A stretch of DNA of 64,000 nucleotides from Escherichia coli (GCF_046105845.1 NZ_CP151004.1); one strand, 5' to 3'. Counted from the stretch's first letter, positions 5,825 through 63,744 are shown. Notes: generated by a model from the sequence alone, not told the origin. Numbers and translations are program-made.

Positions 5825-7027
5825 ATGCAAAGTGTTGATGTAGCCATTGTTGGCGGCGGCATGGTGGGGCTGGCGGTTGCCTGTGGCTTACAGGGGAGCG
5901 GCTTACGCGTTGCCGTACTGGAGCAGCGCGTACCGGAACCTCTGGCGGCGAATGCACCACCACAACTGCGCGTTTCGGCTATCAATGCCGCCAGCGAAAA
6001 ATTACTCACCCGTCTTGGCGTCTGGCAGGACATTCTCTCTCGTAGGGCCAGCTGTTATCACGGTATGGAAGTGTGGGACAAAGACAGCTTTGGTCACATT
6101 TCGTTTGACGATCAAAGCATGGGCTATAGCCATCTTGGGCATATCGTTGAAAATTCAGTGATTCACTACGCGCTGTGGAACAAAGCGCATCAGTCGTCAG
6201 ATATCACTCTGTTAGCCCCCGCAGAATTACAGCAGGTCGCCTGGGGAGAAAATGAAACCTTCCTGACGCTGAAAGACGGCAGTATGTTAACGGCGCGTCT
6301 GGTGATTGGCGCGGACGGCGCTAATTCCTGGTTGCGCAACAAAGCCGATATTCCGCTGACCTTCTGGGATTATCAGCATCACGCGCTGGTAGCGACCATT
6401 CGCACTGAAGAACCGCATGATGCGGTGGCGCGGCAGGTTTTCCATGGCGAAGGCATTCTGGCCTTTTTACCGCTTAGCGATCCGCATCTTTGCTCGATTG
6501 TCTGGTCACTGTCGCCAGAGGAAGCGCAGCGGATGCAGCAGGCAGGTGAAGACGAATTTAATCGCGCGTTAAATATCGCTTTTGATAATCGCCTGGGCTT
6601 ATGCAAGGTTGAGAGCGAGCGTCAGGTGTTCCCGCTGACGGGGCGTTATGCCCGCCAGTTTGCCGCACACCGTCTGGCGTTGGTGGGCGACGCCGCGCAT
6701 ACTATTCACCCGCTCGCGGGGCAGGGCGTTAATCTCGGCTTTATGGATGCCGCAGAGCTGATTGCCGAACTGAAACGGTTGCATCGTCAGGGTAAAGACA
6801 TCGGGCAGTACATTTACCTGCGTCGCTATGAGCGTAGCCGTAAGCACAGTGCGGCGCTGATGCTGGCTGGTATGCAGGGATTTCGCGATCTGTTTTCCGG
6901 TACCAATCCGGCGAAAAAACTGCTGCGTGATATTGGTCTGAAACTGGCCGACACGCTTCCTGGCGTTAAACCACAACTTATCCGCCAGGCAATGGGATTA
7001 AACGATTTGCCTGAATGGCTGCGTTAA
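5825..7027 (+). CDS. ubiI: 2-octaprenylphenol hydroxylase (FAD monooxygenase)
   Basis: 400-aa ORF MQSVDVAIVGGGMVGLAVACGLQ...; UbiI/VisC, paralogue of UbiH. Confidence 0.92.
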   Translation: MQSVDVAIVGGGMVGLAVACGLQGSGLRVAVLEQRVPEPLAANAPPQLRVSAINAASEKLLTRLGVWQDILSRRASCYHGMEVWDKDSFGHISFDDQSMGYSHLGHIVENSVIHYALWNKAHQSSDITLLAPAELQQVAWGENETFLTLKDGSMLTARLVIGADGANSWLRNKADIPLTFWDYQHHALVATIRTEEPHDAVARQVFHGEGILAFLPLSDPHLCSIVWSLSPEEAQRMQQAGEDEFNRALNIAFDNRLGLCKVESERQVFPLTGRYARQFAAHRLALVGDAAHTIHPLAGQGVNLGFMDAAELIAELKRLHRQGKDIGQYIYLRRYERSRKHSAALMLAGMQGFRDLFSGTNPAKKLLRDIGLKLADTLPGVKPQLIRQAMGLNDLPEWLR

Positions 7028-55243: not shown

Positions 55244-57502
55244 TCAAATCAATCCTGCCAGATGGAACTCTTCATATAACCGTTTTGGCGTCAGCGGCAG
55301 TGTATTGATTGCAACACCGGTAGCCATCTTCACCGCGTTACGAATAGCAGCGGCAACAGGAATTATTGGTGGCTCACCCAGTGACTTATGTCCGTATGCG
55401 GATTGCGGCTCATTGATTTCGACAAACGCGCTTTCCAGTTGTGGCAGATCCGGCATGGTGGGCATTTTGTAATCCAGCAGATTGGGGTTACGGACCACGC
55501 CGCTTTTCGCATCGATGATCATCTCTTCAAATAGCGCCCAGCCAATGCCCATTCCCATTCCGCCGTGTACCTGACCTTCTGCCAGCAACGGATTAAGAAT
55601 ATGGCCCGAATCATGAACGTTGAGGATGCGGTTGATGGTGACTTTGCACAGCGCAATATCGACCGTCAGATCAACAAAGGTACAGCCAAACGCCGGTGGG
55701 TTAGTGGTGGTTTTGATGGAGCTTTCAGCAGAGAGCTGCCCACCGCGTTCAGGGTGGTAGAAAGCGTCCATCGCCAAATCTTTTAAAGACATTAACGGCT
55801 CTTCCGGTCGTTCAACCAGCACGATATGGCCTTTTATCAGGGTCAGATTCATCGCTGACTGATGTAGCATGACTGCGGCGTGAGCGATGATTTTCTCTTT
55901 TATTAACAGTGCCGCACTGCGCAGCGCAGGCGCGGCAACATAGCTCTGCCGTGAGGCAAATGCGCCGGGATCGAACGGCGTAACATCGGTATCTTGTGTT
56001 GAAATAACGCGAACGTCGCTGACCGGAACCCCCACGGTTTCTGCCACCATTTGCGAGAAGACGGTGTCGGCACCCTGGCCGATTTCCGTCGCGCCGCTTT
56101 GCACGTTGATGGTTCCATCCTGATTCATCAGAAGGCGCGCGCCTGCTATTTCTACGCCGACAGGCCAGGTGTTCGAGGTGTAGCTAAAACAGGCGACGCC
56201 AACGCCGCGGCGTAAATTGCCTTGCTGGTTCTGGCACTCTGCACGGCGTTTTTCCCATTCAAAGATTTTCCGGCCTTTTTCAAGACACTCCGGCAACCCT
56301 GCGCTGTAAATACGTTTGCCTGTGAGCGGATTAGCATCTCCTTCGCGGGCGGCGTTGCGTAAACGAATTTCAACAGGATCAATACCTAACGCTGTCGCGG
56401 CGTCATCAAGCATAGACTCAACGGCAAATACGACTTGTGGCGCGCCATAACCACGCATCGCACCAGCCGAGGGGAGGTTGGTATAGCAGGTCTTTGAACT
56501 GTAAGCGTAGGCACAACGAGGATAAAGGTAAGCGACTTTATTCCCCCCTGCAGAAGCGATGGAGTGCCCGTGAGATGCATAAGCGCCGGTGTTAGACAGA
56601 ACATCCAGACTATAACCTTTCAATGTTCCGTCGCGGTTCACGCCCATTTGCCCGTCAATAGTAAAAGCGTGGCGGGTACGGGTTGCGAGGAAACACTCTT
56701 CACGGCTAAGGGAAACTTTCACCGGAATGCCGCCAAGCTTGCTGGTCAGGAATGCCGCCATTGGCTCTTCCAGTACATCCTGTTTATTACCAAAACCGCC
56801 ACCGACAAACGGTTTGATGACTCGTACGCATGACCAGGGGATATCCAGCGCCTGACCAACCACGCGGCGCACAATGTGCGGGATCTGGGTGCTGGAAACG
56901 ATGGTAATTCGCGAGTCATCTTCCATCCATGCCAGCGATGTCACGCTTTCCATGTGACAATGTTGAATGACCGGCGTCTGATAGTGCCCCTGTACCTGGT
57001 AGTCGGCGGCATCGATTGTTTGTTGGACATTGCCCGTCGACATCGTGCTTTGTTTTAGTAAATTGCCGCCGTTATGGATTGGTTCAGCGTCATCAGCCAG
57101 CGCCGCTTCTGGGGTGGTGATAACGGGTAATTCTTGCCACTCAATGCTGACCAATTGCGCCGCTTTTTCTGCCGTGAGTTCATCACGGGCCACGACGATG
57201 GCAACGGCGTCTCCATGGTGACGAACATGGCGAGTTAGCAGTGCGCGATCGGCGGTATCGCGCTTGTTTTCGTCAAGTGTCCAGGCATGCCCAGCTGTAG
57301 CGAATGGGATATCAGGCACATCTTCCCAGGTAAAAATCGCCAGTACGCCTGGTAAACTTCTGGCTTGTTCATCATTAATACTTACGGCATAACCATGTGC
57401 GATAGGGCTACGTACATATTTCGCGTAACACATGCCCGCCATAACATAATCGTCAGTATATCGTGCCCGCCCGGTGACCTTAGCAATGGCATCGACGCGC
57501 AT
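55244..57502 (-). CDS. xdhA: Xanthine dehydrogenase molybdenum-binding subunit
   Basis: Start set at MRVDAIAKVTGRARYTDDY... to give 752 aa; the track ORF extends 13 codons further upstream. Confidence 0.92.
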   Translation of the reverse strand: MRVDAIAKVTGRARYTDDYVMAGMCYAKYVRSPIAHGYAVSINDEQARSLPGVLAIFTWEDVPDIPFATAGHAWTLDENKRDTADRALLTRHVRHHGDAVAIVVARDELTAEKAAQLVSIEWQELPVITTPEAALADDAEPIHNGGNLLKQSTMSTGNVQQTIDAADYQVQGHYQTPVIQHCHMESVTSLAWMEDDSRITIVSSTQIPHIVRRVVGQALDIPWSCVRVIKPFVGGGFGNKQDVLEEPMAAFLTSKLGGIPVKVSLSREECFLATRTRHAFTIDGQMGVNRDGTLKGYSLDVLSNTGAYASHGHSIASAGGNKVAYLYPRCAYAYSSKTCYTNLPSAGAMRGYGAPQVVFAVESMLDDAATALGIDPVEIRLRNAAREGDANPLTGKRIYSAGLPECLEKGRKIFEWEKRRAECQNQQGNLRRGVGVACFSYTSNTWPVGVEIAGARLLMNQDGTINVQSGATEIGQGADTVFSQMVAETVGVPVSDVRVISTQDTDVTPFDPGAFASRQSYVAAPALRSAALLIKEKIIAHAAVMLHQSAMNLTLIKGHIVLVERPEEPLMSLKDLAMDAFYHPERGGQLSAESSIKTTTNPPAFGCTFVDLTVDIALCKVTINRILNVHDSGHILNPLLAEGQVHGGMGMGIGWALFEEMIIDAKSGVVRNPNLLDYKMPTMPDLPQLESAFVEINEPQSAYGHKSLGEPPIIPVAAAIRNAVKMATGVAINTLPLTPKRLYEEFHLAGLI

Positions 57503-57649
57503 GCAAGATTCACCCGTAGCGGTTGCTTCCCGCGCTTCCATAGAAATCCCCTCGATTTGAACATTTGGTTCTTATGGCAAAGATTTAGTCTAAGCAGGCA
57601 AGATTTACGCCAGAAACGACGATAAGCGTTAAGGGAGGAAGGAAGTGTG

Positions 57650-57956: not shown

Positions 57957-58709
57957 TTGAGTGCGGGACGCCTGAATAAAAAATCTCTGGGTATCGTGAT
58001 GTTGTTATCGATTGGACTGCTTTTGGCGGGCTGTTCGGGTAGCAAATCATCCGATACAGGAACGTATTCCGGCTCCGTTTACACCGTGAAACGGGGGGAT
58101 ACGCTATATCGTATTTCGCGCACCACGGGAACCAGCGTAAAAGAACTTGCGAGACTGAACGGCATTTCACCCCCTTACACCATTGAAGTTGGTCAGAAAC
58201 TAAAACTGGGTGGGGCGAAAAGTAGCAGTACACGTAAATCAACCGCCAAATCAACGACCAAAACCGCATCGGTTACACCGTCATCAGCAGTACCGAAATC
58301 TTCCTGGCCGCCAGTAGGGCAACGTTGTTGGTTATGGCCAACGACAGGGAAAGTTATCATGCCGTATTCGACAGCTGATGGCGGCAATAAAGGGATTGAT
58401 ATCTCAGCTCCACGGGGTACACCTATTTACGCCGCGGGTGCAGGAAAGGTGGTGTATGTGGGCAACCAGCTGCGTGGCTACGGTAATCTCATCATGATTA
58501 AACACAGTGAAGATTACATTACGGCTTACGCCCATAATGACACGATGCTGGTAAATAATGGGCAAAGCGTGAAGGCTGGGCAAAAAATCGCCACTATGGG
58601 GAGCACTGATGCGGCATCTGTTCGCCTGCATTTCCAGATTCGTTACCGTGCAACGGCAATTGATCCGCTGCGTTACTTGCCGCCTCAGGGCAGCAAGCCA
58701 AAATGCTGA
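57957..58709 (+). CDS. ygeR: LysM-domain / M23 peptidase-family lipoprotein
   Basis: Signal peptide with lipobox LLAGC; LysM motif (YTVKRGDTLYRISRTTG); C-terminal M23-like domain. Start uncertain: TTG at 57957 chosen, the track uses TTG at 57933. Confidence 0.85.
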   Translation: MSAGRLNKKSLGIVMLLSIGLLLAGCSGSKSSDTGTYSGSVYTVKRGDTLYRISRTTGTSVKELARLNGISPPYTIEVGQKLKLGGAKSSSTRKSTAKSTTKTASVTPSSAVPKSSWPPVGQRCWLWPTTGKVIMPYSTADGGNKGIDISAPRGTPIYAAGAGKVVYVGNQLRGYGNLIMIKHSEDYITAYAHNDTMLVNNGQSVKAGQKIATMGSTDAASVRLHFQIRYRATAIDPLRYLPPQGSKPKC

Positions 58710-58742
58710 TGGCGAATTAATCAGCAGTCAGCAGCGCGGCAC

Positions 58743-58770
58743 TTGCTAAGGAGAGCGTAAGGTTTATAAT
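58743..58770 (+). promoter_or_regulatory. Sigma-70 promoter of glyU (-35 TTGCTA, 16-nt spacer, -10 TATAAT, GC-rich discriminator)
   Basis: cTTGCTAaggagagcgtaaggttTATAATgccttacgc located 18 nt upstream of the tRNA 5' end. Confidence 0.65.
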
Positions 58771-58787
58771 GCCTTACGCATCTCGAA

Positions 58788-58861
58788 GCGGGCGTAGTTC
58801 AATGGTAGAACGAGAGCTTCCCAAGCTCTATACGAGGGTTCGATTCCCTTCGCCCGCTCCA
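58788..58861 (+). tRNA. glyU: tRNA-Gly (anticodon CCC)
   Basis: 74 nt: acceptor stem gcgggcg/cgcccgc, anticodon loop cttCCCaag, T-arm ggttcgattcc, and 3' end ...tcca (CCA not encoded). Confidence 0.93.
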
Positions 58862-59081
58862 ATTTATCTTCACCGCATCAACCTGTCATTTTTGTTGTAT
58901 CTTATTTTCCATATTATCTTAATTCAATCGCTTCAGACTTTTCGCAATCGCCGAAATACTTCCCCATTTTTTTGTAAATAAAAGCGTTTACGCAATGCAA
59001 TCCATTTGTAACAACCCAGGTAAAATACCTTATTTTCAAGTTGTTAAATAAGTGGTTATCTACGCTTTTAACAAACGATTG

Positions 59082-60704
59082 ATGGAATCTTTTATGAAAG
59101 GGAAATCTACATTAACTCTTCTGCTCGCTGGTATATTTTCATGCGGCACATGCCAGGCGACAGGGGCAGAAGTGACGAGTGAATCTGTATTTAACATTCT
59201 TAATTCCACGGGGGCAGCAACTGATAAAAGTTATTTATCGTTAAATCCAGATAAGTATCCTAATTATCGTCTTCTGATTCACTCAGCCAAATTAAAAAAT
59301 GAAATAAAGAGCCACTATACCAAAGACGAAATTCAAGGATTGTTAACATTAACAGAAAATACACGAAAGTTAACGTTGACGGAGAAACCCTGGGGAACAT
59401 TTATTCTTGCTTCTACTTTCGAAGATGACAAAACAGCGGCAGAAACCCACTATGATGCTGTCTGGCTGAGGGATAGTTTATGGGGCTATATGGCATTAGT
59501 ATCAGAACAGGGAAATAGTGTAGCCGCAAAAAAGGTTCTGCTCACTCTGTGGGATTATATGTCTACGCCCGACCAGATTAAGCGGATGCAGGATGTCATT
59601 AGCAACCCAAAACGACTGGATGGAATTCCCGGGCAAATGAATGCTGTGCATATCCGATTTGACAGCAACTCCCCCGTGATGGCAGATGTGCAGGAAGAAG
59701 GCAAGCCGCAGCTGTGGAACCATAAACAAAATGATGCTTTAGGTCTTTATCTTGATCTCCTTATACAAGCAATCGACACTGGTACTATTAACGCTGAAGA
59801 CTGGGAAAAAGGTGACCGATTAAAATCGATTGCGCTGTTGGTTGCTTATCTGGATAAAGCCAATTTCTATGTTATGGAAGATTCCGGAGCGTGGGAAGAA
59901 GATGCCAGATTAAACACATCTTCCGTTGCACTGGTGACCTCTGGACTGGAACGTTTGTCGAACTTACTCTCGAAGAAAGACTCTGTTTTTATCTCTGATT
60001 TACTACGCGAAGCTAAAGCCAATGAACTGGATGAAACTCTTTCAACAACGAGGTTGAACCATCTCATAGATAAAGGGTATGAAAGAATAACGCTACAGCT
60101 TGATTTAGGGGGAGAATCCCCTGGTTATCTGGAAAAAGATAAACATTACAGAGAAGCTGATGCGGCCTTACTTAATGTTATTTATCCTGCAAATCTTTCA
60201 AAGATAAATACCAGAAGAAAAGAGCAAGTTCTAAAAATAGTTAAAAAACTAGCAGGTCCGTATGGTATAAAAAGATACGAGAAGGATAATTATCAGTCGG
60301 CAAATTTTTGGTTCAATGATATTAAAACTGATACTGATGAAAATTCACATGCGAAAAGAGAAAAGAGCTTCATTCCATCAACAGAAGCAGAATGGTTTTT
60401 TGACTCATGGTATGCAAAATCAGCAGCAATTGTTTATAAAGAATCAAGAAAAGAAGAATATTTGAATGACTCAGTGCAATTTATGAATAGATCATTGGCC
60501 CAAATAACAGGCGAGAATATGATTGGTGCAAATGGCAGGAGCGTACCTGAAATGGCACTTCCCGAAAGCTATAACTATATCCACAAGTCAGGAACTTTGC
60601 ATGAAGCGCCAAGCCCTATCATTCCGCTAAACTGGTCGAAAGCCTCAATGACTCTTATGTTGAAAGAAATGTCCAACCTTATCAATGATGAGGGAATTAA
60701 ATAG
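59082..60704 (+). CDS. Secreted glycoside-hydrolase-like protein, GH15 (glucoamylase-like) motifs
   Basis: Signal peptide MKGKSTLTLLLAGIFSCGTCQA; motifs AVWLRDSLWGY and EDSGAWEEDARLN resemble the GH15 substrate-binding Arg and catalytic acid regions. Start ambiguous (ATG at 59082 or 59094). Probably corresponds to the ygeQ locus, which is a pseudogene in K-12. Confidence 0.6.
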   Translation: MESFMKGKSTLTLLLAGIFSCGTCQATGAEVTSESVFNILNSTGAATDKSYLSLNPDKYPNYRLLIHSAKLKNEIKSHYTKDEIQGLLTLTENTRKLTLTEKPWGTFILASTFEDDKTAAETHYDAVWLRDSLWGYMALVSEQGNSVAAKKVLLTLWDYMSTPDQIKRMQDVISNPKRLDGIPGQMNAVHIRFDSNSPVMADVQEEGKPQLWNHKQNDALGLYLDLLIQAIDTGTINAEDWEKGDRLKSIALLVAYLDKANFYVMEDSGAWEEDARLNTSSVALVTSGLERLSNLLSKKDSVFISDLLREAKANELDETLSTTRLNHLIDKGYERITLQLDLGGESPGYLEKDKHYREADAALLNVIYPANLSKINTRRKEQVLKIVKKLAGPYGIKRYEKDNYQSANFWFNDIKTDTDENSHAKREKSFIPSTEAEWFFDSWYAKSAAIVYKESRKEEYLNDSVQFMNRSLAQITGENMIGANGRSVPEMALPESYNYIHKSGTLHEAPSPIIPLNWSKASMTLMLKEMSNLINDEGIK

Positions 60705-60769
60705 TTTTCATAATGAGGCGGTCCTGGATTAAAAGGACCGCTCAAAGAGAAATCGTAAGGGAGGTAAAA

Positions 60770-60949
60770 GTGATCAATAAATTACTGTTAGCTTACCTGA
60801 TAGGTCTGGTTGTGACATCGACCTTAATATTTATCTTCTCGGAAGAAAAAGTAACATATCGGTTGTTTGCTGCAGTAATTACAGGGTTGACCTGGCCGCT
60901 TAGCCTCATTCCATCCATCATAAGTCTCATGATTCGTAAATCCGACTAA
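60770..60949 (+). CDS. Small (59-aa) two-helix membrane protein
   Basis: Strong SD aagggagg 6 nt upstream of GTG 60770; two hydrophobic segments (LLLAYLIGLVVTSTLIFIF; LFAAVITGLTWPLSLIPSIISLMI). The track ORF from 60713 lacks an SD. Confidence 0.45.
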   Translation: MINKLLLAYLIGLVVTSTLIFIFSEEKVTYRLFAAVITGLTWPLSLIPSIISLMIRKSD

Positions 60950-61294
60950 CAAGAAAATTATATGAACGATTAAGAAAAATAGAATCGAAAAAGAGAATAA
61001 AATATATGCGGGGAGTAACAAAACACTCGCAGTACGTTAATGTGTAACTAACAAATATGATTTTTATTGAAAATAGTCACCAAACAAGTGTTATAAGAAA
61101 TACGGGGTATGTTTAAGTAAAACATATCAACAGTTGCAATTCTGTATATGGACAGGATGACTTACTACTGTAAGTGGCTGATAGCTATTCGCTCATAACA
61201 AAATCATTATTTTATAAATAGTAATCATCACTTTTTAATCATGTTTTTATAGCAAGTTTATGGAGAATGAGAATATGGAATAAGGAGATGAAAC

Positions 61295-62044
61295 ATGATT
61301 GAAGAAGGGCTGTTACTTCCAATGAATGTTTTGCTTCAAGGACAGAAGTTAACCCTACTGGACCCTGAAATGTGGTTCTTACGGGGAAATGAAAACAAGG
61401 ATGTAACCCTTGTTATTACGATTGGTAATAACCATCAAAAATTAATGGTAGTGGAAGATATATTACTGCTCATTGACCGAAGCCAAATTGAGGTAACTGC
61501 AGGGAAAGTAATTTATCATCCACTTCGCATTGATATCCTGAGTAAATTATTAGCTTTTATAGATGAATCAACGGGGAGTGTGGAAAGGGAACACCATGAA
61601 TTGTTTGCTGATGCCTTGCCCTTTGCATCAGAAGTTGTGCTATTCAGTAAAGTTGCAAGTGAAGCCTGGTTTTTAGCCACTTATCTGAGCAGCGATAATA
61701 TTAATGAAATTCTGTTTCAGCATCTAAGAAAAACAGAATGCTATAAACTGGTTCGCTATTTATTATCGCAATCGCTCATACAGACTTCACTCTATGATCT
61801 TGGTGAGCTTTACGGCGTATCGTATTCACATTTTCGCCGTTTATGTAGTTATGCATTGGGTGGTAAAGTTAAAACGGAATTATGTGGCTGGAGAGTTGCC
61901 AGAGCCGTGTTGGAAATCATTGAAGGAAACAGTGATATGACAACTATTGCGCATAAATATGGCTACTCATCCTCATCACACTTTTCAGCCGAAGTAAAAA
62001 GCCGGTTAGGAAAAACACCGAGAGAACTATGTAAAAAGTTATGA
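61295..62044 (+). CDS. eivF: AraC-family T3SS transcriptional activator (InvF-like)
   Basis: 249 aa; C-terminal AraC HTH (TIAHKYGYSSSSHFSAEVKSRLGKTPREL); SD aaggag upstream; stop overlaps the secretin start (ATGA). Confidence 0.7.
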   Translation: MIEEGLLLPMNVLLQGQKLTLLDPEMWFLRGNENKDVTLVITIGNNHQKLMVVEDILLLIDRSQIEVTAGKVIYHPLRIDILSKLLAFIDESTGSVEREHHELFADALPFASEVVLFSKVASEAWFLATYLSSDNINEILFQHLRKTECYKLVRYLLSQSLIQTSLYDLGELYGVSYSHFRRLCSYALGGKVKTELCGWRVARAVLEIIEGNSDMTTIAHKYGYSSSSHFSAEVKSRLGKTPRELCKKL

Positions 62045-63744
62045 AAATAAAATTACGTATTACTATTATATTAATTTCAGCCTTATGCATTTTTAATGGA
62101 TTATTGACTCCTGGTGCATATGCCGCAACAGCGAATGGATACGTAGCAAATAAAGAAAATCTACGTAGTTTTTTTGAAACGGTTTCATCATATGCGGGTA
62201 AGCCTACAATAGTAAGTAAGCTTGCCATGAAGAAACAGATCAGCGGAAATTTTGATTTAACCGAACCCTATGCCTTGATTGAACGCCTGTCGGCGCAGAT
62301 GGGACTTATTTGGTACGATGATGGCAAAGCTATTTATATCTATGACTCATCAGAGATGCGTAATGCGCTGATTAATCTGAGAAAGGTATCGACGAATGAG
62401 TTTAATAATTTTTTAAAAAAATCGGGTCTGTATAACTCTCGTTATGAAATTAAAGGGGGCGGCAATGGTACTTTCTATGTATCGGGGCCACCAGTTTATG
62501 TTGACCTGGTCGTTAATGCTGCAAAATTAATGGAGCAAAACAGTGATGGCATCGAGATCGGACGCAATAAAGTAGGGATTATTCACCTGGTCAACACATT
62601 CGTTAATGATCGGACTTATGAATTACGTGGCGAAAAGATAGTTATTCCTGGCATGGCAAAAGTACTATCGACGTTGTTAAATAATAACATTAAGCAAAGC
62701 ACTGGGGTTAACGTACTTTCTGAAATTTCAAGTCGTCAACAACTAAAAAACGTATCACGTATGCCTCCTTTTCCTGGTGCTGAAGAAGATGATGATCTAC
62801 AAGTAGAGAAAATAATATCGACAGCTGGAGCGCCAGAGACTGACGATATACAAATTATTGCATATCCTGATACCAACAGTTTACTTGTTAAAGGAACAGT
62901 ATCTCAGGTTGATTTTATCGAGAAGTTAGTAGCTACACTCGATATTCCAAAGCGACACATTGAATTATCTTTATGGATAATAGATATTGATAAGACTGAT
63001 TTAGAACAGTTAGGAGCTGACTGGTCGGGCACGATAAAAATTGGATCCAGCCTAAGTGCATCATTTAATAATTCAGGTTCAATTAGTACCCTGGATGGGA
63101 CACAGTTTATTGCAACAATACAGGCACTTGCGCAAAAAAGAAGAGCCGCCGTTGTTGCTCGTCCTGTCGTTTTAACACAGGAGAATATTCCTGCTATATT
63201 TGATAATAACCGTACTTTCTATACTAAATTAGTCGGCGAGCGTACTGCGGAGTTGGATGAAGTAACCTATGGTACGATGATTAGCGTGCTACCACGATTT
63301 GCTTCGCGAAATCAAATTGAATTACTCTTGAATATTGAAGATGGCAATGAAATCAATTCTGACAAGACCAATGTTGATGATCTGCCTCAGGTTGGTAGAA
63401 CGCTTATAAGTACTATTGCGCGCGTGCCTCAAGGGAAAAGTCTTTTGATTGGTGGATATACACGAGATACGAATACCTATGAAAGTCGCAAGATCCCAAT
63501 ATTAGGCAGTATTCCATTTATTGGTAAATTATTTGGATATGAAGGAACAAATGCGAATAACATCGTTCGTGTCTTTCTTATTGAGCCAAGAGAGATCGAT
63601 GAGCGCATGATGAATAATGCGAATGAGGCTTCGGTTGACGCCAGAGCAATAACACAGCAAATGGCAAAAAATAAAGAAATCAACGATGAATTACTGCAGA
63701 AATGGATAAAAACTTACCTGAATCGTGAAGTCGTCGGAGGATAG
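62041..63744 (+). CDS. eivG: Type III secretion outer-membrane secretin (SctC / InvG family)
   Basis: 567 aa; signal peptide; secretin C-domain motifs (VPILGSIPFIGKLFG). Confidence 0.8.
   Translation: MKIKLRITIILISALCIFNGLLTPGAYAATANGYVANKENLRSFFETVSSYAGKPTIVSKLAMKKQISGNFDLTEPYALIERLSAQMGLIWYDDGKAIYIYDSSEMRNALINLRKVSTNEFNNFLKKSGLYNSRYEIKGGGNGTFYVSGPPVYVDLVVNAAKLMEQNSDGIEIGRNKVGIIHLVNTFVNDRTYELRGEKIVIPGMAKVLSTLLNNNIKQSTGVNVLSEISSRQQLKNVSRMPPFPGAEEDDDLQVEKIISTAGAPETDDIQIIAYPDTNSLLVKGTVSQVDFIEKLVATLDIPKRHIELSLWIIDIDKTDLEQLGADWSGTIKIGSSLSASFNNSGSISTLDGTQFIATIQALAQKRRAAVVARPVVLTQENIPAIFDNNRTFYTKLVGERTAELDEVTYGTMISVLPRFASRNQIELLLNIEDGNEINSDKTNVDDLPQVGRTLISTIARVPQGKSLLIGGYTRDTNTYESRKIPILGSIPFIGKLFGYEGTNANNIVRVFLIEPREIDERMMNNANEASVDARAITQQMAKNKEINDELLQKWIKTYLNREVVGG

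Follow-up and report, generated by a model that had tools for sequence, protein, structure and literature searches.

We analyzed a 64,000-nucleotide stretch of Escherichia coli DNA (GCF_046105845.1 NZ_CP151004.1; referred to below, in its full length, as the window), and in particular the gene pkgA, a full-length ygeQ located on the plus strand at positions 59094–60704 (coding sequence including the stop codon) and encoding a 536-aa protein that resembles glycoside hydrolase family 15 (GH15). From the sequence and a structural model, we consider it fairly probable that PkgA is an exported inverting exo-α-glucosidase from a branch of GH15 related to phosphorylase kinase (PhK), and that its gene is carried by the ETT2 type III secretion island while being independent of it. 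A preliminary description of this DNA had proposed an intact, secreted GH15-like glycoside hydrolase as the first cargo gene of the island; this overall interpretation was supported, and small corrections only were needed.

A search with the Pfam model of GH15 (PF00723) returned a significant match (i-E 6.6e-6, 25.7 bits) between residues 94–417 of PkgA and positions 16–309 of the 427 in the model, and the product name given by PGAP is 'glycoside hydrolase family 15 protein'. When PkgA was searched against the PDB, the sole matches were the D1 domains of PhK (β subunit, E 1.3e-3; α subunit, E 0.05). We further searched the PDB with a family profile derived from an alignment of 80 homologues (38–76% identical), which yielded PhK α at 1.4e-7 and PhK β at 1.3e-4, with no classical glucoamylase at E ≤0.01. 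The AlphaFold2 model built on the same alignment (pLDDT 93.3, pTM 0.92) has the (α/α)6-barrel catalytic domain expected of such an enzyme in the preliminary description. Pfam detected neither a starch-binding domain nor the bacterial N-terminal β-sandwich domain in PkgA. The protein would be read, on the model and the profile matches, as a single-domain member of the GH15 superfamily, in a sub-group that includes the D1 domains of PhK α and β.

Two short motifs, WLRD and AWEED, had been put forward as signs of a GH15-like catalytic region, and both were found where they had been placed, at residues 124–127 (positions 59463–59474) and 266–270 (59889–59903), respectively. They are not chance matches, because R126, W267, E268 and E269 are invariant in the 80-sequence alignment, and W124 and D127 are conserved in at least 90% of the sequences, as is Y120. 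The residues W208, H210, Q212, N213, D214, R394, E491 and W514 are likewise invariant. For comparison we used the glucoamylase of Aspergillus niger, the sequence of which was checked residue by residue against PDB 3eqa; all of the segments named here are on the plus strand. Judging by motif and spacing, Y120-x3-W124-L-R126-D127 (59451–59474) corresponds to Y48-x3-W52-T-R54-D55 of subsite –1 in the A. niger enzyme, and W208-N-H-K-Q-N-D214 (59715–59735) to W120-G-R-P-Q-R-D126, a segment that was also aligned to WGHLQLDA of PhK α. The invariant R394 (60273–60275) corresponds to the substrate-binding R305: the surrounding PkgA sequence, GIKRYEKDNYQSANFWF, aligns to AVGRYPEDTYYNGNPWF of A. niger with both hhalign and HMMER. 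As a result, all six residues of the A. niger subsite –1 set (Y48, W52, R54, D55, W120 and R305) have counterparts in PkgA that are either invariant or conserved at ≥90%. The invariant W267-E268-E269 (59892–59900) corresponds by motif to W178-E179-E180, and W267/E268 align with W184/E185 of PhK α; according to the PhK structure paper, E185 is one of the two catalytic glutamates of that subunit. The catalytic acid is conserved in PkgA, and from these alignments E268 is the predicted general acid.

In GH15 enzymes, the general base lies in the loop that leads into the last barrel helix, as exemplified by E400 of A. niger. In the PkgA model, the last two long helices (residues 454–469 and 513–531) are joined by a loop containing L-P-E-S-Y, and E491 (60564–60566, plus strand) is the sole invariant glutamate of this loop. 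A local alignment with BLOSUM62 pairs PESYN..KSG with SEQYD.KSDG of A. niger and equates E491 with E400. Aligning the family profile with A. niger glucoamylase, hhalign reported a 4% probability, at which the C-terminal register is doubtful. A C-terminal sub-profile retrieved no GH15 enzymes from the PDB, its matches being GH76 mannanases and other unrelated chains at E ≥0.06. On its position in the sequence and in the model, E491 is the probable general base.

No stop interrupts the reading frame between 59052 and its TAA, the last base of which is 60704. The preliminary description had claimed an intact gene beginning at 59082; the frame is indeed uninterrupted, but 59094 is the preferred start. 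The ATG at 59082 (MESFMKGKS) is in frame, four codons upstream, and is probably not the true start because no Shine–Dalgarno-like sequence precedes it and because the orthologue in E. albertii starts from the MK(G/R)KS position (MKRKS). The start given to the orthologue by PGAP is likewise the ATG equivalent to 59094 (MKGKS..., 536 aa). The change is a minor correction.

Residues 1–23 (MKGKSTLTLLLAGIFSCGTCQA; 59094–59162, plus strand) have the form of a Sec signal peptide in sequence and hydrophobicity, in agreement with the cleavable signal peptide proposed earlier. The N-terminus consists of MKGK, a 12-residue hydrophobic core (including LTLLLAGIFS) and CGTCQA, followed by TG, and its hydrophobic maximum of 2.26 begins at residue 7. 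A comparable hydrophobic segment is present at the N-terminus of 79 of the 113 full-length homologues. Signal peptidase I probably cuts after Ala23 (CQA/TG). There is also an alternative lipobox, I-F-S-C, with Cys17 at 59142–59144; it matches a permissive PROSITE-type pattern, but Phe at –2 puts it outside the strict [LVI][ASTVI][GAS]C. Cys17 is kept in E. albertii (V-L-A-C17) and is absent from a 65%-identical homologue (P0004) and from the Yersinia homologues, and the K-12 entry in UniProt (Q46797) is named 'Uncharacterized lipoprotein YgeQ'. A Tat signal was rejected, as the sequence contains no twin-arginine motif. These features make Sec-type export of PkgA well supported, and fit either a soluble periplasmic protein or one that is lipid-anchored at Cys17.

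We accordingly propose the following scheme as a candidate mechanism. A Sec signal peptide at the N-terminus of newly made PkgA would direct its export through the inner membrane, after which it would be either soluble in the periplasm, having been cut after Ala23, or anchored to lipid via Cys17. At this periplasmic or surface location, Y120, W124, R126, D127, W208 and R394 would hold a terminal α-linked glucose in subsite –1, with E268 protonating the glycosidic oxygen and E491 activating the attacking water.

The position of pkgA at the edge of the island was examined by comparison with island-free genomes. In CFT073, for example, the match to 58700–61300 stops at query position 303, which is window position 59002, and glyU is followed directly by yqeG with no island between them. 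The insertion site of the ETT2 island is glyU itself, a tRNA-Gly gene (anticodon CCC; 58788–58861, plus strand) found by ARAGORN and annotated as tRNA-Gly by PGAP in orthologous loci. The GC content drops at 59000 from about 52% to 34–45%. The end of CFT073 homology, which sets the approximate left boundary at 59002–59003, and the drop in GC content show that pkgA is the first gene of the ETT2 island, as the preliminary description had it. The gene order annotated by PGAP in strain 06-00048, the nearest complete genome (99% identical), is that of the window, and the flanks of pkgA are conserved, with glyU upstream and a GhoT/OrtT-like open reading frame (ORF), eivF and sctC downstream.

We compared the window allele with those of other E. 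coli strains. Its DNA is 99.2% identical to that of 06-00048 and 96.8–98.6% identical to the other full-length alleles listed. In K-12 (DH1), ygeQ has the same start, but codon 265 is changed from GGA to TGA (window 59886–59888), such that the protein ends ...MEDS* instead of continuing as MEDSGAWEED, two residues before W-E-E; moreover, homology stops at about 60230 (codon about 379), adjoining IS2. The K-12 locus is therefore a pseudogene remnant, as had been suspected. NT1W22 and similar strains carry the same codon-265 nonsense mutation in full-length DNA, and O157:H7 EC4115 has a 5-nt deletion at gene positions 559–563, flagged as a frameshift by PGAP, with the first stop at codon 188. 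In O111:H2 strain 12A, pkgA is intact and ETT2 is deleted from window position 60718, 13 nt beyond the pkgA stop. Among 5426 complete E. coli genomes, 2968 contain at least 80% of the pkgA DNA, and 1324 retain the island segment downstream as well. Of 40 rows taken at even intervals from this hit list, roughly 18–19 looked intact, a rough figure which suggests that intact pkgA occurs in about one third of complete E. coli genomes. The dN/dS ratio (nonsynonymous to synonymous substitution) was 0.08 against the syntenic E. albertii orthologue (76% amino acid identity) and 0.05 against another E. coli allele, and on these values pkgA looks to be under purifying selection.

Outside E. coli, full-length homologues at 40–60% identity were found in Yersinia enterocolitica, Commensalibacter, Bifidobacterium, Elusimicrobiota, Planctomycetota, Synergistaceae and Bdellovibrionales. 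The family is small, with 859 representatives at E ≤1e-3 among 1.84 billion proteins. The E. albertii homologue keeps its position at the end of the ETT2 cluster. At the Y. enterocolitica, Commensalibacter and Bifidobacterium loci examined, no type III secretion system (T3SS) gene was found within 7–8 kb of the homologue, and these loci had in common no conserved neighbours that would hint at a substrate. Because such homologues lack nearby T3SS genes, because pkgA is intact in strain 12A, and because it is kept in 2968 genomes versus 1324 for the downstream segment, the best-supported view is that pkgA is carried by the ETT2 island yet is not dependent on the secretion system.

Matches in the AlphaFold database (AFDB) include chytrid and dinoflagellate proteins, as well as bacterial ones of about 430 aa that carry the label 'Phosphorylase kinase'. 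One 1360-aa sequence (P0246) was considered as a PhK-like intermediate and rejected, since it joins a GH15-like domain to an M1 aminopeptidase. The same combination of a PkgA-type domain with M1 aminopeptidase was seen in eukaryote-like sequences, namely P0246 and the chytrid AFDB entry A0AAD5Y4W4 ('Aminopeptidase N-like N-terminal domain-containing protein'), and may be either a genuine fusion or an artefact of merging in the eukaryotic gene model. In three Y. enterocolitica contigs, the homologue was preceded, on the opposite strand, by the same two genes (848 aa and 326–332 aa), which had no Pfam hit (JBKOPC010000002.1, 3748–7440); beyond this pair, the longest of the contigs contains an invasin/intimin-like gene.

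Three other explanations were weighed. It has been speculated in print that PkgA is a type III effector of ETT2, injected into the host and disturbing its glycogen metabolism; the suggestion recurs in two papers, a 2014 review of ETT2 among them, and both cite Pallen 2003. The location of pkgA at the end of the ETT2 cluster, also seen in E. albertii, would suit such a role, as would the fact that its nearest solved relatives by sequence are subunits of a eukaryotic phosphorylase kinase. However, the positively charged N-terminus, 12-residue hydrophobic core and CQA or lipobox site appear to be the signature of Sec export, and most homologues (79/113) have similar signal peptides. Known T3SS effectors are not exported via Sec signal peptides. 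The distribution of the family, which extends to Elusimicrobiota, Planctomycetota and Synergistaceae, is not tied to T3SS either. With this N-terminus, homologue loci free of T3SS genes in Yersinia, Commensalibacter and Bifidobacterium, and a gene that is intact where ETT2 is deleted or decayed (as in strain 12A), we regard an effector role as very improbable.

The idea that pkgA is a functionless passenger, decaying with ETT2 and intact in the window by chance, draws on the independent lesions in K-12 (nonsense mutation and IS2 truncation), O157:H7 (5-nt deletion) and NT1W22-like strains, as well as on the rough proportion of intact rows in the sample. It is difficult to reconcile with dN/dS values of 0.05–0.08, with a full-length ORF in many strains, including 12A, which has lost the adjacent 5΄ part of ETT2 up to 13 nt past the stop codon, and with conservation of the family across many phyla; we consider it quite unlikely. 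Unlikely as well is that PkgA is a non-catalytic carbohydrate-binding protein that uses the GH15 pocket for a ligand only, as PhK D1 appears to do. Here, the point of departure is that the α-subunit D1 domain retains both catalytic glutamates, yet no activity was detected on maltose, isomaltose or glycogen, and that the sequence of PkgA resembles PhK D1 more closely than it does the active glucoamylases. By this analogy, the substrate of PkgA may be unusual, or the protein may bind a ligand and do no more.

An exported α-glucosidase remains our preferred interpretation of PkgA, and several observations weigh against it. The match to PF00723 is weak and covers part of the model, precomputed Pfam hits are lacking for many homologues, and no fitting family model was found in NCBIfam, in which the sole hit was TIGR01577 at 14.8 bits versus a cut-off of 820.7. 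HMMER and hhalign place LPESY on LTWSY, a register other than that of the BLOSUM62 alignment, and alignment could not fix the assignment of E491 as the base. The signal peptide was assessed by eye and by hydrophobicity alone. The repeated, independent losses of pkgA in K-12 (nonsense), O157 (5-nt deletion) and other strains show that the gene is dispensable to E. coli in at least some niches. We found no experimental study of, or activity data for, PkgA or any member of its family in the literature. Finally, the PhK structure paper reports that PhK α D1, the nearest solved relative whose active site seems intact, showed no hydrolysis of maltose, isomaltose or glycogen despite both catalytic glutamates; conserved catalytic residues are therefore no guarantee of activity, at least on these three substrates.

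The surroundings of pkgA were also annotated. On the chromosomal side, xdhA occupies 55244–57541 on the minus strand and actS/ygeR ends at 58709. The sequence that separates the tRNA gene from the island (58862–59002) is variable: K-12 lacks about 70 nt 3΄ of glyU (roughly window 58876–58947; about 6163–6225 in the K-12 locus) and has a 1-nt insertion near window position 58979. A scan for promoters and terminators around pkgA found sites no more common than in shuffled controls. Ten nucleotides after the pkgA stop codon there is a stable hairpin (core GCGGTCCT / AGGACCGC; 60714–60744, plus strand) with no U-tract and an RNA folding energy of –19.7 kcal/mol (z –3.84). A widespread ETT2 deletion, which joins pkgA to an eivJ remnant, has its left end at 60718, within the left arm of this hairpin.

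Downstream, a hydrophobic 59-aa ORF lies at 60770–60949 on the plus strand, within a longer frame that begins at 60713. Its orthologue is annotated by PGAP as 'GhoT/OrtT family toxin'; the E. albertii orthologue, 60% identical to that of E. coli, matches Pfam PF10753. NCBIfam gave no hit for this ORF, and no apparent antitoxin-like partner lies between it and eivF. The 2014 ETT2 review lists it as ECs3735, a ydcX homologue. An InvF-like regulator of the AraC family (61295–62044) and the T3SS secretin (62041–63744) follow. Among the 5426 complete E. coli genomes, the best match to 58700–61300 was merely 99.0–99.2% identical, and one genome alone reached ≥99% identity over pkgA; the island allele of the source strain is poorly represented in complete RefSeq genomes.

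In locus and flanking genes, the window ORF is the same gene as pkgA, EC042_3075, ECs3736–ECs3737 and ygeQ (b2863), and differs from the K-12 allele (codon-265 stop and truncation) and the O157:H7 allele (frameshift, stop at codon 188) in being intact. In the literature, pkgA is placed at the end of ETT2 and described as a homologue of glucoamylase and phosphorylase kinase; the 2014 review names ECs3736 as pkgA ('Phosphorylase kinase and glucoamylase') and ECs3737 as the adjoining Sakai ORF, and a 2024 review of ETT2 does not mention pkgA. The gene is thus already known, annotated and named, and the present observation is a correct rediscovery. Its practical value is modest: the first ETT2 gene is now cleanly annotated, from its corrected start, export signal and catalytic residues to the exact lesions of the K-12 and O157 alleles, and there are sequence-based grounds to drop the recurring idea of a T3SS effector acting on host glycogen metabolism.

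Compared with classical GH15 enzymes (A. niger, 3eqa; Thermoanaerobacterium, 1lf6; Arthrobacter, 1ulv), PkgA is 13–15% identical, and its loop after the putative base is longer, forming a β-hairpin in the model. Identity is 16% to PDB 5z3a/7c24 ('Glycosidase' / 'Glycoside hydrolase 15-related protein'), a minimal chain of 371 residues that is about 165 shorter than PkgA and is presumably the isomaltose glucohydrolase of Kribbella flavida. The nearest solved relatives by sequence are the D1 domains of PhK α and β (PDB 8jfk). The PhK subunits are cytosolic, eukaryotic kinase regulators of 1093–1223 residues with four domains beyond D1, whereas PkgA is a stand-alone bacterial protein of 536 aa that is predicted to be exported; it does not have the five-domain (D1–D5) architecture of >1000 residues, and the match is confined to the D1-like part. 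Compared with PhK D1, PkgA has an additional conserved N-terminal segment of about 90 residues, and a second glutamate follows the acid (W-E-E) where PhK α has W-E-R.

The closest solved sequence relative of this small bacterial family is a domain that is itself functionally unexplained. We raise as a tentative and rather doubtful suggestion that PkgA and its roughly 860 representative relatives are catalytically competent bacterial counterparts of PhK α D1, acting on an α-glucoside other than maltose, isomaltose or glycogen. If this were true, knowing what this readily expressed enzyme of E. coli acts on would show where to look for the ligand or activity long sought for PhK D1. PkgA of E. 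coli offers a tractable and inexpensive model for the glucoamylase-like domain of PhK.
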